Part shown: positions 59,841 through 60,433 of the stretch, piece after piece
How positions within the stretch are numbered: the first letter of the stretch is position 1
Layout: each line of letters starts with the position of its first letter
Source of the DNA: Deltaproteobacteria bacterium
GTDB taxonomy: Bacteria; Bdellovibrionota_B; Oligoflexia; Oligoflexales; Bog-1112
Direction: 5' to 3'
Assembly (NCBI GenBank): GCA_947475005.1
Contig: CANJLI010000003.1
Coordinates: 32,472-96,471 of the forward strand
DNA: 64,000 nt
Made by a program: the position numbers and the translations under genes
Notes under the pieces: model-generated
The model's input: the letters and a program-made list of their open reading frames with translations, nothing else
What the model was told of the DNA's origin: nothing
Databases searched by the model: none

Positions 59841-60433
59841 TTTTTTCTTTTTCTTTTTCTTTTTCTTTTTCTTTTTTGTGGAACCAGCTGCGCAGTTTCC
59901 ACGCCTCCTTGCCCCGCAAGGGGAGAACGGGAATGCATTTCCAGAATGACACGTCAAGGCCGGCGCTCGCTCGGGGCCTCCCACCCTCTCAAAATCGCAG
60001 ACAGTATTTTAGTCATGGATAGTGAGCTCTTGGCTGCGATTTGTGACCCGGGCAGGTCCCCCCAAGCGGCTGCCCTTGACGCGTCATTCTGGAAATACAT
60101 CTCCGTTCTCTCGCTGCTACCAGATCTTTGCAGCTACGGGAGAGAGCGGTCGATGCCTTTCAGTTACCATTTGAGGGGCCAAGGGCAGCCGCTTGGGGGG
60201 ACCTGCCCGGGTCACAAATCGCAGCCAAGAGCTCACTATCCATGACTAAAATACTGTCTGCGATTTTGAGAGGGTGGGAGGCCCCGAGCGAGCGCCGGCC
60301 TTGGCATCTAACATGGTAACTGAAAGGAATCTAACCGCTCCCCCATTGCGAGGCAAGGAGGTGTGGAAACTGCGCAGCTGGTTCCACAAAAAAGAAAAGA
60401 AAAGAAAAGAAAAGAAAAGAAAAGAAAAGAAAA
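59841..60433. repeat. nested-palindrome element, copy B, with inverted microsatellite termini
   Basis: The left end has (TTTTTC)x5 (59841-59877) and the right end has (AAAAG)x7 (60388-60433). The terminal inverted repeat is GTGGAACCAGCTGCGCAGTTTCCAC paired with GTGGAAACTGCGCAGCTGGTTCCAC. A perfect 124-bp inverted repeat spans 59955-60078 and 60180-60303 around a 101-bp spacer. It fills the whole gap between two convergent TAG stop codons. Confidence 0.9.

Follow-up and report, generated by a model that had tools for sequence, protein, structure and literature searches.

The 64,000-bp stretch analysed here (hereafter the window; contig CANJLI010000003.1, positions 32,472 to 96,471, of the Oligoflexia assembly GCA_947475005.1) raises the question of what kind of sequence occupies the whole interval between two convergent genes towards its right end. 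At this site a non-coding palindromic repeat of 593 bp, element B (59841–60433, also called copy B), touches the stop codons of both neighbours. On balance, element B is probably a dimer of a lineage-specific, non-autonomous foldback repeat of the kind represented by miniature inverted-repeat transposable elements (MITEs) or by repetitive extragenic palindromic sequences (REPs) and the bacterial interspersed mosaic elements (BIMEs) built from them. What is new is a repeat family of a familiar selfish or structural intergenic kind, not a new type of system.

Element B begins directly after the TAG stop (59838–59840, plus strand) of a 295-aa HTH/Peptidase_M78 gene (ImmA/IrrE-like; open reading frame (ORF) 58953–59840; Pfam PF06114), hereafter M78. 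It ends directly at the TAG stop (60434–60436, minus strand, CTA on the plus strand) of a 311-aa gene with no assigned function (ORF 60434–61369), so that, as a preliminary description of this DNA had stated, it exactly fills the gap between two convergent genes. From the left, a T-rich microsatellite, T(TTTTTC)5TTTTTT (59841–59877, plus strand; scored by Tandem Repeats Finder (TRF) as (TTTTTC)5.8 at 59842–59876), which is an identical 37-nt tract in four assemblies, is followed by a terminal hairpin designated T (59878–59902, plus strand; stem GTGGAA/TTCCAC, loop CCAGCTGCGCAG(T)). A second hairpin, P (CCTTGC-CCC-GCAAGG, 59907–59921, plus strand), is predicted in the single-strand fold as well as the alignment fold. 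Next come segment A (59922–59954), arm B (59955–60078) and a* (60079–60110), an approximate reverse complement of segment A, all on the plus strand, and then a central S hairpin module, CTCTCGCTGCTACCAGATCTTTGCAGCTACGG (60108–60139, plus strand). Beyond it the order is mirrored, with c* (60144–60170, plus strand), an approximate reverse complement of segment C, followed by arm B' (60180–60303, minus strand), segment C itself (60304–60342, minus strand) and the right T hairpin (60363–60387, minus strand). The element closes with an A-rich microsatellite, AAAAAAG(AAAAG)7AAAA (60388–60433, plus strand), a 46-nt tract identical in two related contigs (L011 and L013).

Every structural claim made earlier for this nested layout was upheld, apart from a slight miscount of the second microsatellite, given as seven copies and found by TRF to be (AAAAG)8.8 at 60390–60433. 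The two arms are exact reverse complements over 124 nt in a scripted comparison, and the repeat finder stretches the match to 132 nt at 98% (59955–60086/60172–60303). The T hairpins share an exact 25-mer, GTGGAACCAGCTGCGCAGTTTCCAC (59878–59902 on the plus and 60363–60387 on the minus strand; chance expectation 0), which is included in an outermost inverted repeat of 97 nt at 82%. The flank copies within the spacer were likewise borne out, each at 82%: the 5' part is an inverted copy of segment A (59916–59964 vs 60069–60117) and the 3' part one of segment C (60152–60189 vs 60294–60331). In the left unit, segment A and a* form the outer and inner halves of a basal stem in the fold (59922–59954 with 60079–60110); segment C and c* are the corresponding halves in the right unit, on the basis of the inverted repeat and the arm alignment. 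Folding of the whole element as single-stranded DNA gives an energy of -287 kcal/mol and z = -39 vs shuffled sequences, indicating that the structure is not due to chance.

The anatomy of the unit was derived from an alignment of nine distinct arms, four of which lie in the window. The other five lie on related contigs, i.e., ENA and Logan metagenome assemblies which carry exactly identical flanking proteins. Module order is constant in all nine, running from a pyrimidine tract (T7, T8, (TTTC)n, (TTTTC)n or (TTTTTC)n) through the T hairpin, the P hairpin and an A- or C-type segment to the core. The T-hairpin loop, 12–13 nt long and containing the palindromes CAGCTG and CTGCGCAG, shows no variation among copies. 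Its stems vary with compensation (GTGGAA/TTCCAC, GGAAA/TTTCC, GGGCA/TGCCC and TAAGGGAAA/TTTCCCTTA), and compensatory pairs appear in the alignment fold at 17/35 (GC in five, AU in four) and 18/34 (AU in eight, CG in one). The core opens with a 36-mer, CAAGGCCGGCGCTCGCTCGGGGCCTCCCACCCTCTC (59955–59990 in arm B), that is identical in eight of the nine arms. This is followed by AATCGCAG and by a strongly divergent segment of ~33 nt, the variable apical loop (60001–60033 in arm B, 60225–60257 in arm B'), the sole constant part of which is a central GTCATGGA. The 3' half of the core (60034–60078), which closes with CTGCG..GACCCGGGYAGGTCC, pairs back onto the 5' half. The fold of a single unit (59878–60112; z = -7 on one strand and -9 on the other) consists of the T and P hairpins and a long imperfect hairpin. 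In this last, segment A pairs with a* (or C with c*), the core halves pair together and the variable segment forms the tip. This hairpin measures ~190 nt, or ~300 nt with the termini, and the unit overall 200–300 bp. In the divergent core of the right arm of L001, the helix GCTCGGGG/CCCCAAGC is changed to AGGCAGA/TCTACCT with pairing preserved. A structured or guide-like role for the 33-nt variable segment was considered and rejected, as no shared fold was found among seven variants of it.

Units also occur singly. Contig L007 has a single unit downstream of glpD; its T and P hairpins are complete, and microsatellites flank it at either end. L013 has a solo unit downstream of the 311-aa gene which terminates in the central S hairpin, a module also present in L005. 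In view of these solo units and of the unit folds, copy B consists of a pair of matched units (A/a* and c*/C) that the S hairpin connects head to head, as had been proposed when it was likened to two copies of a smaller unit bounded by inverted repeats. L001, L011 and a second element in the window, copy A, have this dimeric plan too, with arms that are not identical, and the earlier suggestion of recent formation or homogenisation of the perfect arms of copy B is a reasonable one. The window holds these two elements with four arms, and an arm profile search of the 64 kb finds no further arms.

Copy A (~5037–5690, plus strand) follows a glpD-like ORF (3792–5036) at the junction TTAG|TTTTTC and has all the modules. 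Its left tract, (TTTTC)18 (5037–5128, plus strand), leads to a T hairpin (5129–5151, plus strand) and a left arm that runs to ~5337. An AT-rich centre of 119 bp (5338–5456), bracketed by a 42-nt inverted repeat at 98%, separates this from the right arm (5457–5588 and beyond), an extended T hairpin (5650–5681) and A8 (5683–5690). Copy A recurs in the independently assembled L016 and L021. In L018 and L007, from other samples, the flanks of its centre hold a different centre.

Six T-tract ends adjoin six flanks, namely M78, the 311-aa gene, glpD, oppF, ORF X and the region upstream of a DsbA-like gene; the HtrA and 574-aa gene flanks adjoin element-derived modules without a T hairpin. At five of the six ends the tract abuts the stop of an inward-reading ORF (offsets of 0, 0, 0, 0 and 3 nt). 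Four of these stops are TAG and one is TGA, against a background of 13 TAG among 49 stops in the window, and they include the three abutting TAG stops reported earlier at both edges of copy B and at the glpD edge of copy A. The stops of M78 and GlpD are TAG in the element lineage and TGA or TAA in relatives, and that of the 311-aa gene is TAG both here and in relatives (L030 and L032). The stop abutment and the TAG bias suggest some target preference.

Relatives with a 78–80% identical GlpD have no element after glpD or in the surrounding 21 kb (L027–L029), and those with a 78–79% identical M78 have none between M78 and a 312/315-aa gene (L030–L033). The latter four share the order S41 protease, TPR, HTH_25, M78, convergent 312/315-aa gene and biotin carboxylase, so that the adjacency of M78 and the 311-aa gene in the window is ancestral and not a chimeric join. 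Between both stops the relatives carry a conserved ORF of 50–62 aa (..K(T)R(A/S)DWIREIL..; L030 5709–5861, L032 2601–2789), the start of which overlaps the M78 stop, and one of them also has a 283-aa gene. The small ORF was not found in the window or in any contig of the element-bearing lineage, and comparison of the sequences suggests that a small gene was lost when the element took over the M78/311-aa interval. Homology to the relatives stops at the stop codon on both sides, the C-termini being native (..EYLKAS, ..LPSEP and ..DRF, each before the stop). Since homology ends at both stops, the element replaces the entire stop-to-stop interval, ~160 bp including the small ORF, rather than representing a simple insertion into an intact spacer. 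In the relatives, where the preliminary description had proposed to look for empty sites, the element is absent, but a clean empty site was not found.

The family was detected at six or more distinct gene flanks in this organism, and most short-read contigs terminate inside the element, as is expected of a multi-copy repeat. The partners of a given flank vary. M78 is paired with the 311-aa gene in the window and in L002, and with oppF in L001; the 311-aa gene faces ORF X in L011 and the 574-aa gene in L013. Downstream of glpD lie copy A (window, L016, L021), the single unit (L007) or a half unit with other modules and HtrA (L005), and the microsatellite at the glpD end measures 58, 92 or 97 nt across samples. 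The mosaic breakpoints are located in constant segments. We read this mosaicism as ectopic recombination between copies, plus some share of assembly error. Such recombination explains the loop differences at one flank between samples without any call for directed diversification of the loop; the same-flank differences (L001 and L013 vs the window) better fit an exchange of the inner part together with the far neighbour. The elements have the appearance of places where real rearrangement has occurred and a small conserved gene has been lost. They also break and scramble short-read assemblies of this organism, and the gene order of metagenome-assembled genomes across them is to be distrusted.

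Outside this lineage the family was not encountered. Exact and relaxed DNA patterns (a 22-mer core; the core with 17 free bases; T loop, gap and core start) gave zero matches in 185,579 GTDB species genomes and zero in JGI metagenomes and viral contigs. No match was obtained by blastn against plasmid and phage collections, or with concatenated arm translations against 5.8 billion proteins. Covariance models of Rfam 15 gave no gathering-score match in the window, with sub-threshold microRNA-precursor-like scores on the long hairpin only, and a tRNA/tmRNA scan found nothing in element B. The statement that the family matches nothing described held for every library searched (Rfam, plasmids, phages, GTDB, JGI and viral contigs). 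The genome and metagenome census proposed along with it gave zero in the exact-pattern scans. The family is thus private to the lineage of this one organism. Literature searches on palindromic intergenic repeats of Bdellovibrionota found nothing, and those on bacterial MITEs with microsatellites and hairpins nothing relevant. The window itself is ordinary chromosome, with rnpA, yidC, jag, mnmE, glmS and pcrA among its genes. The nearest named homologues, at ~50–53% identity, are from Pseudobacteriovorax, Oligoflexales and Bdellovibrionota, and two samples that carry the organism, ERR3761204 and ERR3761218, figure in a paper about lakes in Sweden (PMC10244341). From these two observations the host is probably an uncultured freshwater member of the Oligoflexia.

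Among known systems, three groups come closest. Bacterial MITEs include Correia/NEMIS in Neisseria, RUP in Streptococcus pneumoniae, ERIC/IRU in enterobacteria and RPE in Rickettsia. Like the present element they are non-coding sequences of 0.2–0.6 kb with long terminal inverted repeats that form a long hairpin, are dispersed in intergenic regions, often downstream of genes, differ in presence between relatives and disrupt assemblies. Copy B agrees in its 593 bp, its outer 97-nt inverted repeat at 82% and its unconserved ORFs. It differs in having termini that are hairpins with a conserved loop and a covarying stem, polypyrimidine/polypurine microsatellites at its ends, head-to-head dimers and mosaics, in that neither a target duplication nor an autonomous partner was found, and in its lack of similarity to the searched libraries.

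The second group comprises REPs, BIMEs and REPINs (REP doublets forming hairpins), in which the unit is an imperfect palindrome of 20–40 bp with a GTAG/CGTC tag and is thought to be mobilised by REP-associated tyrosine transposases (RAYTs) (PMC3733652). The inverted pairs that fold together, the mosaic structure, the position downstream of ORFs and between convergent genes, the conserved unpaired motif with variable stem details and the presence of several families per genome are all common to these and to the present element. Its unit of 200–300 bp, compared with 20–40 bp for a REP (PMC3733652), its microsatellite ends and the failure to see a RAYT in the window set it apart. Tagging of units by CGTC/GTAG was also rejected, as the tag is inconsistent among arms: CGTC/GACG lies beside core B only in A-type units (B-left, L001-left and L005), the left unit of copy A has GAGTC and C-type units have TGCC. 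Elements derived from IS200/IS605 (palindrome-associated transposable elements and other substrates of histidine-hydrophobe-histidine (HUH) enzymes) resemble it in having no target duplication and subterminal hairpins for which recognition in the form of folded single strands is plausible, and in the short sequence TTAG that recurs at three of its ends. Their ends, unlike the true inverted repeats found here, are asymmetric on one strand, and they insert 3' of a fixed tetra- or pentanucleotide; TTAG adjoins only three of the six T-tract ends, a microsatellite stands between flank and hairpin, and TnpA/TnpB were not seen. The element is akin to MITEs and REPINs in behaviour and is filed in neither family.

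A mechanism consistent with a foldback dimer can be proposed. The unit would have spread as a non-autonomous mobile element acted on by a protein encoded elsewhere, which may recognise the folded T hairpin. As covariation occurs within one terminus, a single-strand HUH/RAYT-like enzyme would fit better than a DDE transposase. Slippage during replication may then have lengthened the oligo-T tract beside the hairpin into (TTTC)n, (TTTTC)n or (TTTTTC)n, and deletions from these unstable ends would have eroded the dispensable flank up to the stop codons, the limit allowed by selection; erosion beyond a stop would add a poly-Phe/Leu extension of 130 codons. Constant segments, 36–57 nt of which are identical between copies, could serve as crossover points that yield mosaics and new neighbours, and recombination may likewise have homogenised the arms of copy B into the perfect 124-bp inverted repeat. 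A read-through transcript of either convergent gene would form a hairpin nearly 300 bp long, with the probable side effect that both read-through and 3' exonucleases would be stopped there.

Several observations weigh against this explanation. The covariation counts are few, coming from ~9 distinct arms which are related by descent, and templated quasipalindrome correction could mimic compensatory changes without selection. Neither a target-site duplication nor a clean empty site was found among the family sites, and no direct repeats surround copy A, L001 or L011. Simple erosion predicts less regularity than is seen, with exact abutment of a stop at four ends and TAG in four of five. The annotated ORFs of the window include no transposase, recombinase or RAYT; the sequence of this organism that was covered amounted to ~130 kb (the window and the retrieved loci), and the sole transposase nearby, of the IS66 family in L021, has unrelated ends. 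The mosaicism data come from short-read metagenome assemblies, and part of them may reflect mis-joining. Finally, the consistently better fold of the outward-strand RNA, described next, is superfluous to a purely DNA-level model.

It is this RNA bias which lends some weight to an explanation that we nevertheless regard as unlikely, namely that the element is maintained by the host as RNA, its transcribed arms acting as a 3'-end insulator or stabiliser, a substrate of RNase III or an antisense or small RNA. Transcripts would arise by read-through of the convergent genes into their 3' untranslated regions, or would start in the centre and run outward. In all six units the outward-reading strand folds better as RNA, by 7–23 kcal/mol and with more G.U pairs. 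Eight of the nine arms keep the 36-mer unchanged, including those of copy A, whose units offer it nothing to pair with. The elements lie directly after stop codons and mostly between convergent genes, a placement typical of REPs, which are located downstream of ORFs or between convergent genes and for many of which an action at the RNA level is assumed (PMC3733652). Divergent sigma-70-like hexamers (TTGTCA-16-TAGAAT on the plus strand, matching at 10/12) also occur within the AT-rich centre of copy A. Against these points, no promoter-like site was found by scanning copy B, an Rfam match is absent, and relatives manage without the element at the same loci. The outward-strand bias may be inherited from one ancestral unit, or may reflect selection on RNA. 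A role as a bidirectional intrinsic terminator was rejected, as the scan of element B found no such terminator and both convergent genes meet a T tract, then a hairpin, then an A tract, the reverse of the polarity of an intrinsic terminator. Protein coding by the arms (a 99-aa ORF at 59946–60245) was rejected as well: the start and frame differ between arms, the variable loop is 29 or 30 nt long among variants and neither the ATG nor the frame is conserved.

Less probable again is a MITE of the IS630/Tc1-mariner type, moved by cut and paste by a DDE transposase acting in trans, with the TA of TAG/CTA duplicated and the element proper reading G(T)n...(A)nC; a TA duplication as in such MITEs was one of two readings of the junction offered in the preliminary description. 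The element does have long terminal inverted repeats, a foldback structure and no coding capacity, and both edges of copy B, like the left edge of copy A, allow a reading as TA|G...C|TA. A TA is also readable at the oppF end in L001 (TA|GGGAT6C), making four T-tract ends in which it can be read. It is lacking, however, at the boundaries GCAAA|T8 and CGTGA|T7, and the boundary of the T tract itself at the oppF end, TAGGGA|T6C, is without it. At the M78 edge the stop of the relatives is TGA and not TAA, which leaves no TA there, and the site is a replacement. In addition, covariation inside a single terminal hairpin is unexpected if inverted repeats are recognised as double strands, and an IS630-like gene was not seen among the window ORFs.

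Comparably doubtful is the possibility that the identity of the arms is an assembly artefact, two paralogous arms having been collapsed or mis-joined via a 57-nt constant segment, in which case the true right arm would carry a different loop. The inner junction from spacer to right arm (~60172–60220) is spanned by no retrieved independent contig: L002 stops at 60183, beside a polymorphic base (GGGCAGCC vs GGGCCGCC in L011), and an exact look-up of the ORF that crosses this junction gave no record. Most contigs are interrupted within the element, and different samples yield different mosaics. However, in independent assemblies one and the same core-loop combination is found linked to M78 (L002) and to the 311-aa gene (L011), supporting identical arms; the convergent M78 and 312/315-aa neighbours of the relatives make the join ancestral, and copy A was reproduced in two samples.

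A more unusual proposal, and one that we hold to be very unlikely, is that of a hairpin-ended mobile element which is copied via its outward strand and lands at the 3' boundary of coding sequences. It rests on three points: the better fold in 6/6 units, a variable A-rich tail and stop-adjacent ends in 5/6. The outward strand does end in the T hairpin followed by such a tail (A7, A8, (GAAA)n, (GAAAA)n or (GAAAAA)n), which differs in length among samples at least at the glpD end. If true, the element would be a retroposed one resembling a short interspersed element (SINE), or a single-strand-transposed one, with targeting to stop codons or 3' ends. To our knowledge, no SINE-like stop-targeting element of this kind has a described bacterial counterpart.

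The least probable explanation is an invertible switch in which the perfect 124-bp arms, a good substrate for recombination, flip the 85–101-bp spacer, since this spacer contains neither promoter nor ORF but only the S hairpin and the inner halves of the stems, no invertase gene was seen nearby, other dimers of the family have non-identical arms and, in L011, the one contig with the spacer in opposite orientation relative to the 311-aa gene, the far arm and far flank also differ, so that it is not a simple flipped isomer and, though flipping there is possible, recombination and assembly ambiguity are inseparable.

As a foldback repeat, then, element B adds a well-dissected family from the Oligoflexia (Bdellovibrionota), with the unusual features of microsatellite termini, boundaries coinciding with stop codons and an invariant-loop terminal hairpin sharing GCTGCGCAG with a second repeat family. 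If these features fail to hold, it is one more selfish foldback repeat. The octamer CTGCGCAG sits in hairpins of the two families and was observed nine times in the window vs 1.1 expected, seven of these in the second foldback family and the family studied here. One hairpin-recognising enzyme could service several repeat families.

The second foldback family has the form CCGTCATCCCAAGG[CTGCGCAGCAG]CCGTATGGGATC / GATCCCATACGG[TCCCTTCGGGA]CCTTGGGATGACGG and lies at 12041–12146, 31636–31706, 38261–38395 and 46754–46847, with a fragment near 23490–23530; GCTGCGCAG is common to its internal mini-hairpin and the loop of the T hairpin. A family of small REP-like hairpins, GGGGACAC-N8-10-GTGTCCCC, has six copies in the window vs 0 expected (145–211, 17968–18059, 31715–31769 and 46921–46945) and is also found in L005, L013 and L021, its copies often being inverted doublets that fill convergent gaps (e.g., 17960–18071). 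A nested palindrome at 23351–23583, intergenic after an alcohol-dehydrogenase-like gene, combines a 28-nt tandem duplication (GAGATCGGGGACAGTTACCGAATTATT x2) with a 38-nt inverted repeat that is perfect and has a gap of 4 nt; a third arm, 108 nt away, has diverged. The IS66-family transposase mentioned above (L021 1826–3345, ~8 kb upstream of the window start, sample ERZ27277814; also in L022) has terminal repeats of GTAACTCCCCAGGTAG, the right one being followed by (AAAAG)8 and a second, near-palindromic copy of the repeat, so that the same A4G microsatellite occurs at the end of an unrelated mobile element of this genome.

Three coding sequences of the window were also noted. A 794-aa protein (52246–54630, minus strand), encoded in the part of the window with the lowest G+C (0.42–0.43), has a weak match to the domain of OspF-like phosphothreonine lyases, which are type III effectors (E = 2e-9, below the family cut-off). 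An unusually long protein of 802 aa (18621–21029, minus strand) matches GTP cyclohydrolase II (RibA) in its N-terminal 200 residues, with a second partial match later. Within ORF 30108–30746, a tandem repeat of 27–30 nt in ~3 copies (CCTCCTATGCCTCAGGTCCCGCAGCTT, 30636–30724) was found to be a proline-rich coding repeat.

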